Of a stretch of 5,284 nucleotides of DNA, positions 11 through 5,284 are shown piece after piece (position 1 is the stretch's first letter; each line of letters opens with the position of its first letter). The stretch is from Escherichia coli (GTDB lineage Bacteria > Pseudomonadota > Gammaproteobacteria > Enterobacterales > Enterobacteriaceae), in the NCBI RefSeq assembly GCF_036507355.1, contig NZ_AP027882.1, one strand, 5' to 3'. Made by a program: the position numbers and the translations under genes. Below the pieces are notes generated by a model. That model searched no databases. It was not told the origin of the DNA and saw only the letters and a list, made by a program, of their open reading frames with translations.

Positions 11-337
11 ATGGAAAAGCGAACGAAAGAGATCAAAATCCGGCTCACCGAAACCGAGCATCAGCTACTGCTTGAGCGCTGCGACCGGACTCATCTTGCT
101 GAGTGGCTGCGTCACCTTGGTCTGGGCGAGCACACCTCACGCAAGCGCCGTGTGCCCAGTGTGGCGCCCGAACTGCTGCGACAGGTCAGCGGGATTGGTA
201 ACAACCTGAACCAGATCGCCCGCCGTCTGAACCAGAGTGATTCCCTTACGCCCTCTGAACGTGTCTCGCTGCTTGCCGTGCTGAACAGTCTCGACCGGCA
301 GCTTGGCGATTTACTGGAGCAGAACCGTGATCGTTAA
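11..337 (+). CDS. mbeC: Relaxosome accessory protein of the MobC/MbeC family
   Basis: 108-aa ORF with GGAG at 4-7 ahead of the ATG. Translation (..LTETEHQLLLERCDR.., ..VSGIGNNLNQIARRLN..) reads like MobC/MbeC proteins of ColE1-type plasmids. Stop at 335-337 overlaps the start of the relaxase gene, the usual mbeC-mbeA arrangement. Assignment is from recalled family resemblance. Confidence 0.8.
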   Translation: MEKRTKEIKIRLTETEHQLLLERCDRTHLAEWLRHLGLGEHTSRKRRVPSVAPELLRQVSGIGNNLNQIARRLNQSDSLTPSERVSLLAVLNSLDRQLGDLLEQNRDR

Positions 338-1862
338 AATTCACTCGCGCGGTGCGGGCTCAGGCAGTGGTCCGGTGGATTATCTGCTGGGAAAAGACCG
401 GCAACGCGAACAGGCCAGTGTGCTGCGCGGCAACCCTGAATATGTGCGCGAGCTTATCGACGGCTGCGACTTTTCCCGCGCCTACACTTCCGGTGTGCTG
501 TCATTCCAGGAGCCGGACATTGCGGATGCCGAGAAATCGCGCCTGATGGATGAATGGGAGCACACGCTGCTGACCGGCCTCGACCGTGACCAGTACGCCT
601 GTCTGTGGGTGGAGCACCGCGACAAGGGACGGCTTGAGCTGAATTTTGTCATCCCGAACATCGAATTGCAGAGCGGCAAACGCCTTCAGCCCTACTTTGA
701 CCGCGCCGACCGCCCCCGCGTCAACGCCTGGCAGACCCTGACTAATGACCGGCTGGGGCTGCGTGACCCGAACGACCCGACCTGTCGCCGACCGCTGACA
801 CAGGCCAGCGATCTGCCCCGCGACAAACAGCTGGCGGCAGAGAAAATCACCACCGGCCTGATGAACCTGATGCAGCAGGGTGTGATCCGCAGCCGGCAGG
901 ACGTGGTGGCGCAGCTGGAAAGCTACGGCCTGACCGTGGCGCGGGAAACGAAAAGCAGCATCAGCATTGCCGATCCGGACGGTGGCAGAAATATCCGGCT
1001 GAAAGGAATGATTTATGAGCGAGATTTTAAATTTGGCGAAGGGCTTCGAGGAGAAATCGAAGCAGCAGGCGCAGGATATCGAGCAGAGCGTGAAGCGCGA
1101 GTTCGGGAGGCTGGAGATGTCTATCGGCGCGGAACTGCAATCAAGCTCGCAGAGCATCAGCAACGCTATCCGCGAGCAGAACGGCAGGCTGACGGGCATG
1201 ATCAGAGCCTCCGTCTCAACGGCGATGGCGTGGATATTCACCAGCTTCGCCCTGCTGATCGGCATCCTGGGCGGGATAATCTGGTTTCAGGGCACGATCA
1301 TCACCTCACGCCTGAGCGAAATGGACAGCTACAGCCAGCAGCTGGCGAGCCTGAAAGCGAAAAGTGGCGCGGGTGTGACGATTTACAGCGACGACTCCCG
1401 CCGGAACACCTACCTGGTGGTGCTGCCGAAGCAGGCACACGGTGTGGAAACCTACACGTCACAGGCCGGAAACACTGTAGTGAAATACACGGCGAAATAA
1501 CCCCATCAGAACGCCCTGAAACGCCTCAGCGCGTTTTTAACACCGAGGACGACCAAAACCATGACCGAGATGGAAAAACAGCTTCTGAGCGCCTTAGAGA
1601 GCTTACAGACAAGCTACGAGCAACAGCAGCAGGCATGGCAGGCCAGCTACAGCAGTTTGCAGCACATGTTCGAGACTACCTCGCAGGCGCTGGAACGCAG
1701 CGACAGGGTCTGTCAGCACTTGAGCAGTCAGGTGAACAGCTTGCGCGATCAGGTCGAGAACTTGAGCTGCAACGTCAGCCGGTTAATGCGCTCGTGAAGC
1801 AGCACGAACACCAGATTCAGATGGAAAAAAAGCGGACACGTTATCACGGCCTTTCAATTTAA
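327..1862 (+). CDS. mbeA: Mobilization relaxase, ColE1 MbeA-like (MOB HEN family)
   Basis: Long GC-rich ORF (open from TTG 303). N-terminus from GTG 327 reads MIVKIHSRGAGSGSGPVDYLLG, closely resembling ColE1 MbeA including the catalytic-Tyr context. Conserved stretch WVEHRDKGRLELNFVIPN (nt about 606-659) carries the His/Glu/Asn motif. GGAG at 316-319 sits 7 nt before GTG 327, so I prefer 327 over 303; the start is uncertain. Confidence 0.88.
   Translation: MIVKIHSRGAGSGSGPVDYLLGKDRQREQASVLRGNPEYVRELIDGCDFSRAYTSGVLSFQEPDIADAEKSRLMDEWEHTLLTGLDRDQYACLWVEHRDKGRLELNFVIPNIELQSGKRLQPYFDRADRPRVNAWQTLTNDRLGLRDPNDPTCRRPLTQASDLPRDKQLAAEKITTGLMNLMQQGVIRSRQDVVAQLESYGLTVARETKSSISIADPDGGRNIRLKGMIYERDFKFGEGLRGEIEAAGAGYRAEREARVREAGDVYRRGTAIKLAEHQQRYPRAERQADGHDQSLRLNGDGVDIHQLRPADRHPGRDNLVSGHDHHLTPERNGQLQPAAGEPESEKWRGCDDLQRRLPPEHLPGGAAEAGTRCGNLHVTGRKHCSEIHGEITPSERPETPQRVFNTEDDQNHDRDGKTASERLRELTDKLRATAAGMAGQLQQFAAHVRDYLAGAGTQRQGLSALEQSGEQLARSGRELELQRQPVNALVKQHEHQIQMEKKRTRYHGLSI
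1015..1500 (+). CDS. mbeB: Mobilization protein MbeB-like, nested within mbeA in an alternate frame
   Basis: 161-aa ORF in a different frame from mbeA, AAGGA 7 nt upstream of the ATG, central hydrophobic segment (AMAWIFTSFALLIGILGGIIWF). Position and size match the mbeB gene nested in ColE1 mbeA. Confidence 0.75.
   Translation: MSEILNLAKGFEEKSKQQAQDIEQSVKREFGRLEMSIGAELQSSSQSISNAIREQNGRLTGMIRASVSTAMAWIFTSFALLIGILGGIIWFQGTIITSRLSEMDSYSQQLASLKAKSGAGVTIYSDDSRRNTYLVVLPKQAHGVETYTSQAGNTVVKYTAK
1561..1797 (+). CDS. mbeD: MbeD-like mobilization/entry-exclusion protein, nested in the 3' part of mbeA
   Basis: 78-aa ORF in the same alternate frame as mbeB, GAGGA upstream, Gln/Ser-rich probable coiled coil (MTEMEKQLLSALESLQ..). 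Matches the position and character of ColE1 mbeD. Confidence 0.7.
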   Translation: MTEMEKQLLSALESLQTSYEQQQQAWQASYSSLQHMFETTSQALERSDRVCQHLSSQVNSLRDQVENLSCNVSRLMRS

Positions 1863-1897
1863 GAGTCATGTAAGTTGTTTTTAAGGTTTTTTTTAAC

Positions 1898-1925
1898 TTG
1901 ATATAAGGTCTATGTAATGTATATT
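1898..1925 (+). promoter_or_regulatory. Candidate sigma70 promoter (TTGATA, 16-bp spacer, TATATT) in the AT-rich islet, upstream of the 78-aa ORF
   Basis: TTGATA at 1898-1903 and TATATT at 1920-1925 with a 16-bp spacer, in a strongly AT-rich intergenic stretch. Sequence-pattern call only. Confidence 0.3.
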
Positions 1926-1958
1926 TATCTCGATTTTTAATTGAGGTAAAAAGTAAAA

Positions 1959-2195
1959 ATGGCTAAGGGTGCTCAAGCAATTTCTAAAGAAATAAACGAG
2001 TTAATGAGAAAAAACGGGAATGAGTGCATTACCTTGAAGTGGGAGCAGTTCTACGAGATATGTGAAAGAGAAAGGCTTGCAGAAGTAGTCATGGAAAGAG
2101 TGTCAGAAAGCCTTAAAAAAAATGACCTTCATATTATCTACGGTAACAACGTGATTATCGTAAGAGATTTCTGTTGGAAACCCGTTTCTCTTTAG
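1959..2195 (+). CDS. Hypothetical small protein (78 aa), unknown function
   Basis: ATG at 1959 preceded by GAGGT (1944-1948). AT-rich codon usage distinct from the flanking GC-rich genes. No family recognised from the translation. Only ORF in the islet. Confidence 0.5.
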   Translation: MAKGAQAISKEINELMRKNGNECITLKWEQFYEICERERLAEVVMERVSESLKKNDLHIIYGNNVIIVRDFCWKPVSL

Positions 2196-2201
2196 TGATT
2201 A

Positions 2202-2229
2202 GTGACAACGTGTTGTTTTAAGGTATAAG
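2202..2229 (+). promoter_or_regulatory. Candidate rep promoter (GTGACA, 16-bp spacer, TATAAG)
   Basis: GTGACA at 2202-2207 and TATAAG at 2224-2229. Would give a leader of roughly 140 nt before the rep start, consistent with leader-based control of ColE2-type rep genes. Pattern-based only. Confidence 0.3.
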
Positions 2230-2373: not shown

Positions 2374-3270
2374 TTGAGTAACGCCGCACTCGAACTATTC
2401 AACGAACGCTTGCCGCACAAGCCGTACTTTTCGGACGATTTGCACTTTGGTGTACGCATTGCCGGCAAGGAACGCGCCATTCTGGCGAAATACATCCAGT
2501 TCAATCAGCCTCATGCCATGTTCTGGCTGGGATTCGATGTTGATCGCGCCGGTGCCGCTATTGACTGGAGTGACCGCAATGCTCCCGCGCCCACACTGAC
2601 CATCACCAACCCCGAAAACGGACACGCGCATCTGCTGTACGCGCTAAAAACCTCGATACGCACAGCGCCGGACGGAAAAATGAAGCCGCTGCGCTACGCT
2701 GCCGCCGTGGAGAACGCGCTACGTAAAAAATTAGAGGCTGACGCGGGGTATTCAGGGTTAATCTGCAAAAATCCGAACCACAGGCACTGGAAAATTGCCG
2801 TGTGGCAGCCGGAACTCTACACACTGGACTGGCTGGCCGATTTCCTTGACCTGAACGCTGCGAACGATAAAGAAATCGTTGCCGACTACGGATTAGGCCG
2901 TAACTGCACCTTGTTCGACAAAACCCGAAAATGGGCTTATCGTGCTATTCGTCAGGGCTGGCCTGAGTATGGACAATGGATGCTAGCTTGTGTTGAAAGA
3001 GCTACAGCTTACAACATGCAGTTTTCAGCACCATTAGATGAAAAGGAGGTCATAAGTATAGCGAAGAGTATATCTAAATGGACATATTCTAAATTCACAC
3101 AGCAATCTTTCGATGAATATGTTAAGAAAACACACTCAGCTGAATGTCAGAGTATAAGAGGGCGCAAGAGCTCTGGCGGAGGGCGGCCAAAAATAAGATC
3201 TGAGGAGTGGGTCTCTCTAGGTATTAGTCGCGCTACGTGGTATAGGAAGCACTATAAAAATGAAAATTAA
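2374..3270 (+). CDS. rep: ColE2-type plasmid replication initiator (Rep, primase-like replicase with PriCT-like and C-terminal HTH regions)
   Basis: 298-aa ORF starting at TTG 2374, with an in-frame stop at 2359-2361 just upstream. Translation (..ERLPHKPYFSDD..FDVDRAGAAIDWSDRNAPAP..NGHAHLLYAL..YSGLICKNPNHRHW..GLGRNCTLFDKTRKWAYRAIRQGWP..) follows the conserved blocks of ColE2-family Rep as I recall them. C-terminus has a basic tract and an HTH-like WVSLGISRATWYRK. Base composition switches from GC-rich to AT-rich near 2950. Confidence 0.85.
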   Translation: MSNAALELFNERLPHKPYFSDDLHFGVRIAGKERAILAKYIQFNQPHAMFWLGFDVDRAGAAIDWSDRNAPAPTLTITNPENGHAHLLYALKTSIRTAPDGKMKPLRYAAAVENALRKKLEADAGYSGLICKNPNHRHWKIAVWQPELYTLDWLADFLDLNAANDKEIVADYGLGRNCTLFDKTRKWAYRAIRQGWPEYGQWMLACVERATAYNMQFSAPLDEKEVISIAKSISKWTYSKFTQQSFDEYVKKTHSAECQSIRGRKSSGGGRPKIRSEEWVSLGISRATWYRKHYKNEN

Positions 3271-3916
3271 GATGTATGTCTTGTCTTTGTTTTTTTTGTT
3301 TATACCAATAATTTTTTATTTTTCTGGTATTGATGATGTCTGGAACGTTTTTACCAAAGCTAATGGTTTTTGTGATGGCGTCAGTAATCGTATTGTCTGT
3401 ATAACAGGTAATATGGGCAACCAGCTATCTCTATCCGTGTCAAGGTTATGCGTTTGTATTTTTTTGGTCTTTTTGTGTGGCTATACTTACTGGTGGTATA
3501 AGAGACAGCTTTCATTTTTGGATAGGGGGATTACCTCTGCCGAAGTGGTTGTTGTTGGATGCGAAAAAGAGTCAACTGAGTATCTGTCATTTTTGTCAAC
3601 TTACATAATGCCCCTGGTTTTTACAGACTTAACAAAACCTTCAAATGTTTTCAATTTCATTTTTATTCTAGTTATTGTCGGATTTCTTCATATAAAAACA
3701 AGAAGGATTCATAGCAACCCAACGCTTTCATTGTTTGGTGTTTCTGCTTACAAAATTGACTATATAATCAGGGTTGATGGTCAGGATTCTGATATCACAA
3801 AAGGATTGATTGTCCTGTCGAAGGATGAGATATCTGTGAAAAGTGTAATTCGAATCATAAAAAAAGAAGACTACATTACATTCGCAAAATACATAAGGAA
3901 CGATTCAAATGGCTGA
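3260..3916 (+). CDS. Multi-pass inner-membrane protein, unknown function (about 4 predicted TM helices plus a roughly 70-aa soluble C-terminal domain)
   Basis: 218-aa AT-rich ORF. Hydrophobic segments at about aa 5-23, 57-80, 108-121 and 129-145, followed by a charged tail. ATG 3260 overlaps the rep stop (3268-3270); AGGAAG at 3244-3249. An alternative in-frame ATG is at 3272. Confidence 0.7.
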   Translation: MKIKMYVLSLFFLFIPIIFYFSGIDDVWNVFTKANGFCDGVSNRIVCITGNMGNQLSLSVSRLCVCIFLVFLCGYTYWWYKRQLSFLDRGITSAEVVVVGCEKESTEYLSFLSTYIMPLVFTDLTKPSNVFNFIFILVIVGFLHIKTRRIHSNPTLSLFGVSAYKIDYIIRVDGQDSDITKGLIVLSKDEISVKSVIRIIKKEDYITFAKYIRNDSNG

Positions 3917-5054
3917 AGAAAAACTGGATTTAAGCGAGCTCCATCATGACGCGCAGAAGGCCTCTGAGCTCTCATCCTATTACTCCCACTTCGATACAAA
4001 GGTAGAAGATTTTGACCTTCATGTATATTTTAACTTTAGGCATAAGATAAAGGGCGGTGATGGAAAGTACCGTTACGAATATCGGGTTGCAAAAATAGAT
4101 GATACTACTGTTCTGAAAGAATCAATCAAAGATAACGTGATAACAAAAACCCTTAATGATCTAAGTAGCGGTAGAGTTGCAGTATCTGATATAAAGCAGC
4201 TTAGTGATAGGGCTAGCACTATATCATTTTTAGAAGATGCAAAGTCATACAAAGATGAACAGATGTCTTTTTTGACAGGTATTATTTTTGATAAGGGATT
4301 TGGAGGTGATGGGGATATTCCTGTCGTCAATTTTGAGAAGTTTGATAAAATATCAAAGGTTGACTCAATTGTTTTTGTCTTAAGGAAAGGTGATAAATGT
4401 ATAACAATATACAAAAAACAGTATCCTATACAGAACCTGACCAAACAGAAAAATCATTACTTCTCATATAGCAAAGATACGTTATCAAAAATAGATGCTG
4501 ACATGATATCAATTGATGGAAAAGCCTCTATTGTTTTTGTTAAAGGTACTGCATATATCTATGATCAGGATGTTTTTGAGAAATTTTTCGGATACAAGAA
4601 GTGGATAAAAAAAGTTGCGGGCGAATTTGTTTCTGAAATGAAGCAAAAATTTTCATCGATAGTAGACTTTGGAAAAGTTACCGACAGGCTTGAAAAAGAA
4701 AGTGCTGATGCAGATGCCTTTTCAAGGAAACTGGCAAGAATATATAACAATAAAGATCTAAGAGCTTCCTTTAATACTGTTACACCAGAAAAAATCAGTG
4801 ATTTTTTAGTTGAAAATGAGTATTTCGCTAGATTGCTAAAGTACAAATCAGCGGAAGAACCTTTAGAAGTATCAACCCATGATCAGCAGGAAGCATTTAT
4901 ATTAATAGTTTCTGAGGGCGTTCTTCGCTCGCTTATTACTGGTTTTGATTATTTAAGCCCTGCCGCGAAAAGAAAAATTGCGACAGGCCAAACCGCGCAA
5001 AAACCTTCTTCTGTAGTAACTAGGATACCCTCCAGCGCATCTGACGCCGCCTAA
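3909..5054 (+). CDS. Hypothetical 381-aa soluble protein, unknown function; candidate effector or sensor partner of the upstream membrane protein
   Basis: Long AT-rich ORF with AAGGAA 8 nt upstream. ATG 3909 overlaps the upstream stop (3914-3916) in an ATGGCTGA junction. No Walker, HxH, nuclease or other motif recognisable by eye. Ends just upstream of a strong hairpin plus T-run. Confidence 0.8.
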   Translation: MAEEKLDLSELHHDAQKASELSSYYSHFDTKVEDFDLHVYFNFRHKIKGGDGKYRYEYRVAKIDDTTVLKESIKDNVITKTLNDLSSGRVAVSDIKQLSDRASTISFLEDAKSYKDEQMSFLTGIIFDKGFGGDGDIPVVNFEKFDKISKVDSIVFVLRKGDKCITIYKKQYPIQNLTKQKNHYFSYSKDTLSKIDADMISIDGKASIVFVKGTAYIYDQDVFEKFFGYKKWIKKVAGEFVSEMKQKFSSIVDFGKVTDRLEKESADADAFSRKLARIYNNKDLRASFNTVTPEKISDFLVENEYFARLLKYKSAEEPLEVSTHDQQEAFILIVSEGVLRSLITGFDYLSPAAKRKIATGQTAQKPSSVVTRIPSSASDAA

Positions 5055-5077
5055 CGAACGAGCTTGAGACAAAACAA

Positions 5078-5125
5078 CCTATATCAGATAACAGCCCTCT
5101 CTAAGAGAGGGCTGTTTTTTTTGCA
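5078..5125 (+). other. Candidate ColE2-type replication origin element
   Basis: TATCAGATAACAGC at about 5081-5094 matches the core of the ColE2 ori as I remember it (recall, not search), and is followed immediately by the hairpin and T-run. It lies about 1.8 kb downstream of rep, not directly after it. Confidence 0.4.
5091..5122 (+). terminator. Rho-independent terminator-like hairpin with T-run closing the rep-cargo operon
   Basis: Perfect inverted repeat ACAGCCCTCTC (5091-5101) / GAGAGGGCTGT (5105-5115) around a TAA loop, followed by eight T (5115-5122). Read directly from the sequence. Confidence 0.65.
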
Positions 5126-5139
5126 GCCAGCACAGAATC

Positions 5140-5245
5140 TGACATACTACACCATACCATAAGCCAGTACACACAGCGTCCCCTCTGCGAGGTGCCGTCT
5201 GTGACTGGTTCAGGGGGCTCGCCGCCCCCCGAAACCCCCGGCATC
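5140..5245 (-). other. ColE1 bom-like oriT with putative nic site (minus strand)
   Basis: Minus strand reads ..GAACCAGTCAC..(31 nt)..GTGTGTACTGGCTTATGGTATG.., resembling the pBR322/ColE1 bom region ..GACCCAGTCAC..GTGTATACTGGCTTAACTATG.. recalled from memory. Putative nic within CTGG/CTTA, between plus-strand 5163 and 5164. GC-rich inverted repeat GGGGGC / GCCCCC at 5213-5229 nearby. Confidence 0.5.
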
Positions 5246-5284
5246 CACTGCGAAAAATTCTCACGGTGGTGCGAATTTTTTCTT

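Follow-up and report, generated by a model that had tools for sequence, protein, structure and literature searches.

The window analysed here, 5,284 bp on contig NZ_AP027882.1 of Escherichia coli, is an entire circular, ColE2-like mobilizable plasmid of the Col(Ye4449) type, for which a GenBank record exists. Its rep gene, which encodes a ColE2-type initiator primase, is followed by two adjacent genes of a predicted Kiwa anti-phage system (kwaA, encoding a membrane protein, and kwaB) and then by a predicted ColE2-type origin of replication (ori). We identified inside rep a switch from GC-rich to AT-rich sequence that coincides with a similarity breakpoint, and we examined its relationship to the cargo and the origin downstream. 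A near-identical record (CP082432.1, 99.9%) is typed in PLSDB as replicon Col(Ye4449) with a MOBP relaxase, and its rep product is annotated as a replication initiation protein. The rep gene of the window is 97.8-100% identical in eight independent plasmid records (Salmonella, E. coli, Dickeya); Salmonella, E. coli and other records reach 99.9-100% over rep, and a Dickeya plasmid of equal length reaches 97.9%. More broadly, PLSDB holds several hundred related rep genes (277 near-DNA matches).

Composition switch and domain structure of Rep

The switch from GC-rich to AT-rich sequence inside rep, described in the initial annotation, is real. In sliding windows, the GC content was ~0.51-0.62 over the first two-thirds of the gene and 0.31-0.48 beyond. 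Codons 1-184 have a GC content of 0.545 and a GC content at third codon positions (GC3) of 0.65, and codons 185-298 (2926-3267) have values of 0.424 and 0.35, respectively. In a likelihood test for one change-point in GC3, the switch fell after codon 182 (support interval codons 179-189, nt 2911-2941) with a log-likelihood ratio (LLR) of 13.0, a value reached in 0 of 2000 permutations (p<=0.0005). The switch is thus within rep and near the site first proposed but slightly upstream, as it begins just 5' of the RKWAYRAIRQGWP motif (2926-2964) and not 3' of it. From codon 185, the window has CGA, AAA, GCT, TAT, CGT and ATT where all relatives use G- or C-ending synonyms, and throughout codons 185-215 its synonymous third positions carry A or T versus G or C in every relative. 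As the drop is carried by synonymous third positions, amino-acid composition was ruled out as its cause. The tail of rep had also been described as AT-rich like the cargo, and its GC3 of 0.35 does match that of kwaA (0.35) and kwaB (0.31), but the last ~38 codons rebound to a GC content of 0.47 owing to Gly/Arg-rich second positions (GC2 of 0.55), with a GC3 of 0.45. Hence, the description holds best for codons 185-260 (GC 0.40, GC3 0.30).

Rep is described as a plasmid-specific primase (PMC4538821). Residues 28-156 match the Pfam Replicase domain (PF03090, AEP primase type; E=3.2e-45), residues 175-238 match PriCT_1 (PF08708; E=2e-10) and residues 176-292 align with the DNA-binding domain of the ColE2-P9 Rep (PDB 3VW4; E=2.8e-24). 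This combination of Replicase, PriCT_1 and helix-turn-helix tail is shared with the classical class C theta replicons ColE2-P9 and ColE3-CA38. Replicons of this class are characterised by primer synthesis by Rep at ori and by a requirement for DNA polymerase I. Because PriCT_1 spans the seam (residues 185-200) and the 3VW4 alignment already starts at residue 176, the seam falls within the DNA-binding domain, directly after its most conserved helix, and not at the border between the replicase core and the C-terminal domain, where it had been placed initially.

Table 1. Features of the 5,284-bp plasmid, including the two parts of rep and the seam between them.
Feature	Coordinates	Strand	Remarks
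mobC	11-337		
mobA	303-1862		mbeB and mbeD nested within
Small AT-rich variable slot	1863-2229		GC 0.335; 78-aa open reading frame (ORF) at 1959-2195
rep, ColE2-type initiator primase	2374-3270	+	298 aa, TTG start
Backbone-type part of rep, codons 1-184	2374-2925	+	GC-rich, common to plasmids with other cargo
Recent conversion patch, rep codons 131-184	2764-2925	+	Right end abuts the seam
Junction zone	2911-2972	+	GC3 change-point and similarity breakpoint
Module-type part of rep, codons 185-298	2926-3270	+	AT-rich, lineage-specific; end of DNA-binding domain with linker and helix-turn-helix tail
kwaA, Kiwa anti-phage system	3260-3916	+	PADLOC KwaA, E=1.9e-121
kwaB, Kiwa anti-phage system, DUF4868	3909-5054	+	PADLOC KwaB, E=1.2e-220
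Backbone return, origin right half to oriT/mob	5061-5284	+	88-94% identity to unrelated-cargo plasmids resumes at 5061-5072
Predicted ColE2-type origin, GAGACAAAACAACCTATATCAGATAACAGC	5066-5095	+	Left half class-specific, right half family-conserved
Terminator-like hairpin and T-run overlapping the right end of the origin	5090-5122	+	12-pair stem at 5090-5116 (terminator scan)

Similarity breakpoint and affiliations of the two parts of rep

Comparisons with related plasmids revealed a similarity break at nt 2926-2972. Codons 1-184 share 87-94% nucleotide identity with Col(Ye4449) plasmids of Klebsiella, Serratia and Hafnia versus 75% with pMUT2, the Kiwa-bearing plasmid of E. coli Nissle 1917. 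Identity to the plasmids with other cargo is 90-94% before the break and 59-63% beyond it. The break starts with the lineage-specific synonymous run at codon 185 (nt 2926), and the maximum chi-square (chi2) breakpoint against five backbone relatives is at nt 2972, where mismatches rise from 7-10% to 37-41% (chi2 of 94-157; maximum in 2000 permutations, 18.6; p<=0.0005). The cargo of these five comparators consists of an AIPR/AbiU-like protein, an OLD-like ATPase, small ORFs, an AAA ATPase and an unannotated AT-rich stretch, respectively. Third-position identity at identical amino acids also falls against the Col(Ye4449) backbone relatives, from 68-84% in codons 1-190 to 33-57% in codons 198-240, which argues for a separate history of the 3' part of rep and not merely for faster protein evolution.

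The comparison with pMUT2 gives a different picture. This ColE2-like MOBP plasmid has the same rep-kwaA-kwaB-ori order and the same overlaps as the window, the same class of Rep tail (…GGGRPK…EW.SLGISR.TWYRK.YKNEN) and an identical 30-nt ori; the presence of Kiwa on it has already been noted (PMC13226779). It differs in overall nucleotide identity (65-76%), in the position of its GC3 switch (codon 227 versus 182 in the window) and in codons 185-225, which follow the general family consensus and not the window. No breakpoint separates the window from pMUT2 (25% mismatches before and 34% after; chi2 of 6). The rate ratio across the seam is therefore ~6 for one relative and 1.3 for another, so that rate variation is insufficient and recombination is needed. 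In support of this, informative sites in the triplet of window, pMUT2 and a Klebsiella plasmid with AIPR cargo (L009) change sides at the seam: 115 sites to the left of 2926 join the window with L009 and 9 with pMUT2, versus 32 and 60, respectively, to the right (Fisher p=5e-20). Likewise, the nearest neighbour in bootstraps is L009 on the left (834/1000) and pMUT2 for codons 241-298 (838/1000). The 3' end of rep is 69.7% identical in nucleotides between window and pMUT2, and the Kiwa operon ~70%. Backbone similarity resumes within the origin (5061-5072); the variable block therefore comprises rep codons ~185-298, the cargo and the left half of ori. These affiliations support a recombination junction at 2926-2972 that would link the specificity tail of Rep with the cargo and the origin. 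The proposal of the initial annotation, that the specificity domain was swapped together with the cargo, is thus partly supported, in that the tail, Kiwa and the left half of ori side with pMUT2 beyond the breakpoint.

A younger exchange has left its trace on the backbone side of the seam. Compared with the Dickeya plasmid pJS5 (L010), rep of the window differs only in codons 131-184 (~160 nt, with 84-96% identity there), and this patch is 97.5% identical to L009 and stops exactly at the end of the backbone homology. Exchanges comparable to that proposed for the window occur elsewhere in the family. The Yersinia plasmid pYe4449-1 (L008) and a Serratia grimesii contig (L041) are 70-90% identical over rep codons 1-145 and 98-100% identical over the remainder of the gene; their cargo is identical, and they look like a recent recombinant pair. 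Another two plasmids (L006 and L022) are 98% identical through codon 215, yet have unlike tails, ori classes and cargo.

Origin pairing and cargo slot across the family

We extended the analysis to a panel of 31 Col(Ye4449)/pUB6060-type relatives from 15+ genera, drawn from PLSDB and one scan of species-representative genomes. The GC3 drop is present in 31/31 relatives (0.44-0.71 in rep codons 1-180 versus 0.13-0.42 in the last 60 codons), so the composition profile is family-wide and not special to the window plasmid. The annotation would have been refuted by relatives that shared this profile but lacked a breakpoint near 2950; the first of these was found, yet the breakpoint exists. Change-points in the relatives lie at codons 200-231, most commonly at 215, with the window (codon 182) and its Dickeya sibling (codon 164) as outliers. 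Breakpoints in backbone-similar pairs lie at codons 200-242, and the seam of the window is at the upstream edge of this zone. Mean pairwise nucleotide identity is 0.83 in codons 1-184, remains at 0.82 in codons 185-215 and falls to 0.61 from codon 216 to the end.

The position of the origin separates these plasmids from the classical replicons. A ColE2-type ori usually lies directly downstream of rep, according to PMC2831885. In the 27 of 31 relatives with a locatable ori on the contig, an insert of 530-2550 nt separates the rep stop from a ColE2-type ori, and its GC content is 0.28-0.40 in all of them except one (0.50). The corresponding insert in the window has a GC content of 0.36 across 1.8 kb and its genes are cistronic-like with rep via the kwaA overlap. 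In contrast, three classical ColE2/Col156 plasmids (L015, L016 and L018), in one of which the Rep tail matches the sequence of the ColE2-P9 structure, lack a significant switch (LLR<=5.6), and their ori follows rep at a distance of 5-15 nt. The same short spacing without a GC3 switch characterises the ColE2, Col156 and ColE9 types, whereas the ori of the window is reached after 1.8 kb, past an AT-rich operon.

The predicted ori of the window is short, and its conserved CAGATAACAGC core (5083-5095, same strand as rep) begins 1812 nt past the rep stop and is thus not immediately downstream as in classical ColE2-type plasmids. A search with the literal ColE2-P9 ori pattern (up to 3 mismatches) gave no match in the window because the left half differs (ACAAAACAACC in the window against ACCAGATAAGCC in ColE2); we located the origin via its conserved right half, ATCAGATAACAGC, which is identical in ColE2-P9, ColE3-CA38, the ColE2-P9-like L016 and Col156 plasmids. 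The full 30-nt ori is identical in pMUT2 and L014. From this conservation, the element at 5066-5095 would be the working origin. An origin element at 5078-5125 had been proposed at first; that interval includes the right half of the origin, and the rest of it is the terminator hairpin.

We compared the origin (window positions 5066-5082) with the Rep tail (rep codons 259-292, 3148-3249) over 29 loci and found three classes of ori left halves that pair with three classes of Rep tails with zero exceptions. The ori class …GACAAAACAACCTAT goes with a Rep linker of 15 residues and the tail …ISR.TWYR, the class …ACTAAACAACCTAT with a linker of 14 residues and the tail …SR.TYFR, and the class …AAGCCTAT with a linker of 18-31 residues that contains a GG-containing insertion and a variable tail. 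Within this pairing, the extra G in ori matches a GG-containing 4-aa insertion, and AAAGCC matches ~8 more residues (L020 and L034). The ori class of pYe4449-1 is that of the window. Identity in the 5' part of rep is independent of ori class (0.823 within and 0.824 between classes). Nucleotide identity from codon 216 to the end is also uninformative (0.618 within and 0.611 between) because of saturation; the class signal is in the linker length and tail motif. In ColE2 and ColE3, the gain or loss of single nucleotides in ori is matched by indels in the C-terminal region of Rep. Hiraga, in 1994, reportedly associated ori indels with Rep C-terminal indels. The co-variation in the 29 plasmids agrees with this, is as expected if the C-terminal region of Rep carries origin specificity, as the initial annotation assumed, and supports the notion of the Rep tail and the ori half as a specificity pair; by extension, the tail would set origin specificity in the window plasmid too.

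The interval from the rep stop to ori also has a characteristic content. When we tested the 10 largest cargo proteins from other plasmids, 10/10 matched PADLOC defence families: a retron-type reverse transcriptase (type V), an OLD/Gabija-like (GajA-like) ATPase, AbiU, HEC-07, NsnA (twice), an ATPase-Toprim protein, a type II methyltransferase and two LeoA-like GTPases. Taken over loci L004-L038 and the window (3271-5054), the slot looks like a defence-gene hotspot. The cargo is tightly packed: the kwaA ATG lies within the end of rep, with an overlap of 11 nt that includes the rep stop; kwaB begins 8 nt before kwaA ends, and 11 nt separate the kwaB stop from the origin. In many relatives, too, the start of the first cargo ORF is within 20 nt of the rep stop.

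The annotation of CP082432.1 includes MobC, MbeB and MbeD, which identifies a ColE1-superfamily mobilization module; the backbone is thus MOBP with ColE1-type mbe genes and not MOBQ4 as in the ColE2 comparators. The mobA ORF (519 aa, relaxase-type, TTG start) is absent from the PLSDB gene tables of identical records, which list MobC, MbeB and MbeD only; its omission may be a gap in the tables or a pseudogene call. The 78-aa ORF of the small variable slot had no PADLOC match. Relatives carry at this position toxin-antitoxin pairs of the RelE/ParE-NadS or HigBA-like type, and pMUT2 carries RelB/RelE, unlike the window. Immediately 5' of rep, two terminator-like hairpins are present on the minus strand (2368-2352 and 2343-2325). 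By analogy with ColE2, an antisense RNAI-type RNA (RNAI/incA) for copy-number control, directed against the 5' untranslated region of rep, would be expected here.

The database scans also returned atypical records. A Klebsiella contig of 21,085 bp with four rep copies (L043, NZ_CP138436.1) was considered as a case of co-resident siblings, but it is instead a tetramer of one ~5.27-kb plasmid; its head-to-tail Col(Ye4449)-type copies have small differences and reflect either a multimer or an artefact of long-read assembly. Truncated rep copies in large contigs of Mixta (L032, 55-kb) and Rosenbergiella (L042, 173-kb) may be remnants of integration, comparable to the case of Erwinia tasmaniensis (PMC2831885). 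Enterobacterial-type plasmids appeared in metagenome-assembled genome bins labelled Clostridia, Paenochrobactrum and Rhodobacteraceae (L025, L036 and L040), probably through mis-binning.

Explanations for the seam and its significance

The switch is, in our judgement, probably the left seam of a mosaic between a GC-rich, exchanged backbone and an AT-rich, lineage-specific module. The backbone, GC-rich and often exchanged, would run from the right half of the origin onward through the mob genes and the rep control region to codon 184 of rep. The module would extend from ~2926 to ~5075; it would begin with the ~114 terminal codons of rep, continue through the Kiwa operon and finish with the part of ori recognised by Rep, its left half. 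The C-terminal domain of Rep would bind the origin, which in these plasmids would have been displaced from rep by cargo read through from rep and presumably co-transcribed with it. Homologous recombination between related plasmids could then proceed through one crossover in rep codons 1-~200 and a second at or beyond the conserved half of ori, and transfer the intervening segment as a single piece in which Rep tail and origin stay matched. Since crossovers would be possible only in the conserved flanks, one of them inside rep, the cargo, the tail and its cognate ori half would move jointly, and the recombinant would for this reason remain replication-competent.

Several observations weigh against a mosaic formed by import of this module. 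Codons 185-240 have no clear nearest relative, as their bootstraps divide among seven sequences. Nor did we find a tail donor: in PLSDB and in a search of 5.8 billion proteins with Rep residues 185-298, the best match outside the plasmid lineage of the window, which comprises near-identical Salmonella, E. coli and Dickeya records, was 68-70% identical, whereas the closest relatives of the backbone part reach 93-94% identity. The protein search returned short or partial proteins only, with the best one outside the window's own lineage at 70%. With no donor found, the event would be old or its partner unsampled. The divergence between window and pMUT2 is about even throughout (65-76% identity); therefore, recombination could have altered the other plasmids, with the rep of the window as the 'vertical' form. 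The seam is real either way, but a swap into this particular plasmid is not proven. The right half of ori and the sequence just beyond it are backbone-like, so that the module carries just ~15 nt of ori. In addition, the ori and tail classes could represent a few ancient clades and not many independent co-changes, as the statistics ignore kinship. Finally, recombination by itself does not account for an AT-rich module in all lineages.

A rival explanation, differential homogenisation, agrees with most of the observations; as a distinct reading, we consider it unlikely. According to this explanation, the AT-rich tail is ancestral and has diverged in place, whereas continual gene conversion between co-resident siblings has kept the backbone homogeneous and GC-rich; the tail, the cargo slot and the ori half could not be exchanged piecemeal, and the switch would mark the edge of the recombining region with no import. 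The GC3 drop in 31/31 relatives is consistent with this, as are the near-saturated tails between all lineages (mean nucleotide identity of 0.61 versus 0.83 for the 5' parts), the missing breakpoint between window and pMUT2, the backbone conversion patches that end at the seam and the AT-rich Moellerella plasmid L013, in which GC3 still drops 5'-to-3' from 0.44 to 0.13. However, homogenisation still needs a recombination boundary within rep and is thus a variant of the mosaic explanation and not an alternative to it. Furthermore, pYe4449-1 and the S. grimesii contig carry an entire block of rep 3' end plus cargo on diverged backbones, and the seam of the window is 15-40 codons upstream of the usual position, which is unexpected under a single ancestral boundary.

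Constraints on the protein or its expression are far less probable as the cause of the switch. A DNA-binding tail rich in Lys, Asn, Ser and Ile could favour AT-rich codons, and GC1 and GC2 do fall as well in codons 211-260; yet synonymous third positions show the largest drop, at codons with an unchanged amino acid, and the classical ColE2 Rep has a homologous tail without a GC3 drop. An internal promoter or a signal for translational coupling of kwaA could act similarly. As kwaA overlaps the rep stop, some coupling signal must sit in the 3' end of rep, and two weak promoter-like matches are present at 2915-2943 and 3094-3123. However, promoter-like sites are not enriched (7 versus 8.6 expected from shuffles), by which we ruled out an internal promoter as the cause, and no such constraint would produce the similarity breakpoint with which the switch coincides. 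The small size of the region is all that speaks for an assembly chimera or a chance fluctuation, and we give this virtually no weight, given the permutation result (p<=0.0005) and the same rep in eight independent plasmid records.

Parts of this architecture are already in the literature. Hiraga et al. (1994; cited in PMC5304414) proposed that segment exchange leads to mosaic ColE2 replicons. The Rahnella plasmid pHW66 has an insert of >2 kb and 36% GC between repA and the putative oriV, with genes apparently cistronic with repA, and the Plesiomonas plasmid pUB6060 has a distinct low-GC insert; both carry mobA-D of the ColE1 superfamily (Rozhon et al. 2010, PMC2831885). The RepA of pYe4449-1 was also aligned in that study. 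Thus, mosaic ColE2 replicons and low-GC inserts between repA and oriV have been published before, and pHW66, pUB6060 and pYe4449-1 share the latter architecture with the window. The descriptions differ in that the insert of pHW66 is said to begin after repA, whereas the AT-rich tract of the window begins ~114 codons inside rep, and in that the cargo of the window is an identified system, Kiwa, unlike the insert in the pHW66 paper. A link between tail, cargo and ori class is not stated in the passages covered of PMC2831885. Modular exchange between related ColE2-type Rep replicons has a further parallel in the pPT23A-family plasmids of Pseudomonas, whose replicons are described as natural chimeras; recombination exchanges their functional modules (REx-C/REx-R), and this affects incompatibility (Bardaji et al. 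2017, PMC5304414). The unit exchanged there is the upstream control region versus the whole rep, whereas in the window it would be the DNA-binding tail, the cargo and half of ori, with the seam inside rep. In the literature searched we found no statement of an AT-rich, lineage-specific tract that starts ~80-115 codons inside rep, of the co-variation of tail and ori classes despite free shuffling of the 5' part, or of a rep-ori slot that holds defence genes. Our additions to prior work, the co-variation and the defence genes in the slot, are modest.

The mosaic reading explains the odd composition profile of the window plasmid and locates its working parts: a Rep of which the last third would belong with the Kiwa operon and, at a distance of 1.8 kb, the putative origin. 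Beyond this plasmid, small enterobacterial plasmids of a very common group store cargo between the specificity tail of the initiator and the origin, and this location would link cargo turnover and replication specificity genetically. As a tentative extension, the rep-ori interval might be a dedicated anti-phage slot flanked by the specificity pair, in which exchange of cargo would switch origin specificity (IncB-type incompatibility) and allow siblings to coexist as a combinatorial defence repertoire; the GC3 contrast would then reflect a recombining, GC-maintained backbone versus a non-recombining module that decays toward AT. For replicon typing, a probe in the 5' part of rep is uninformative about ori class or cargo. 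Knowledge of the pairing may be of use in predicting which sibling plasmids can share one cell and in engineering vectors of the pMUT2 type.

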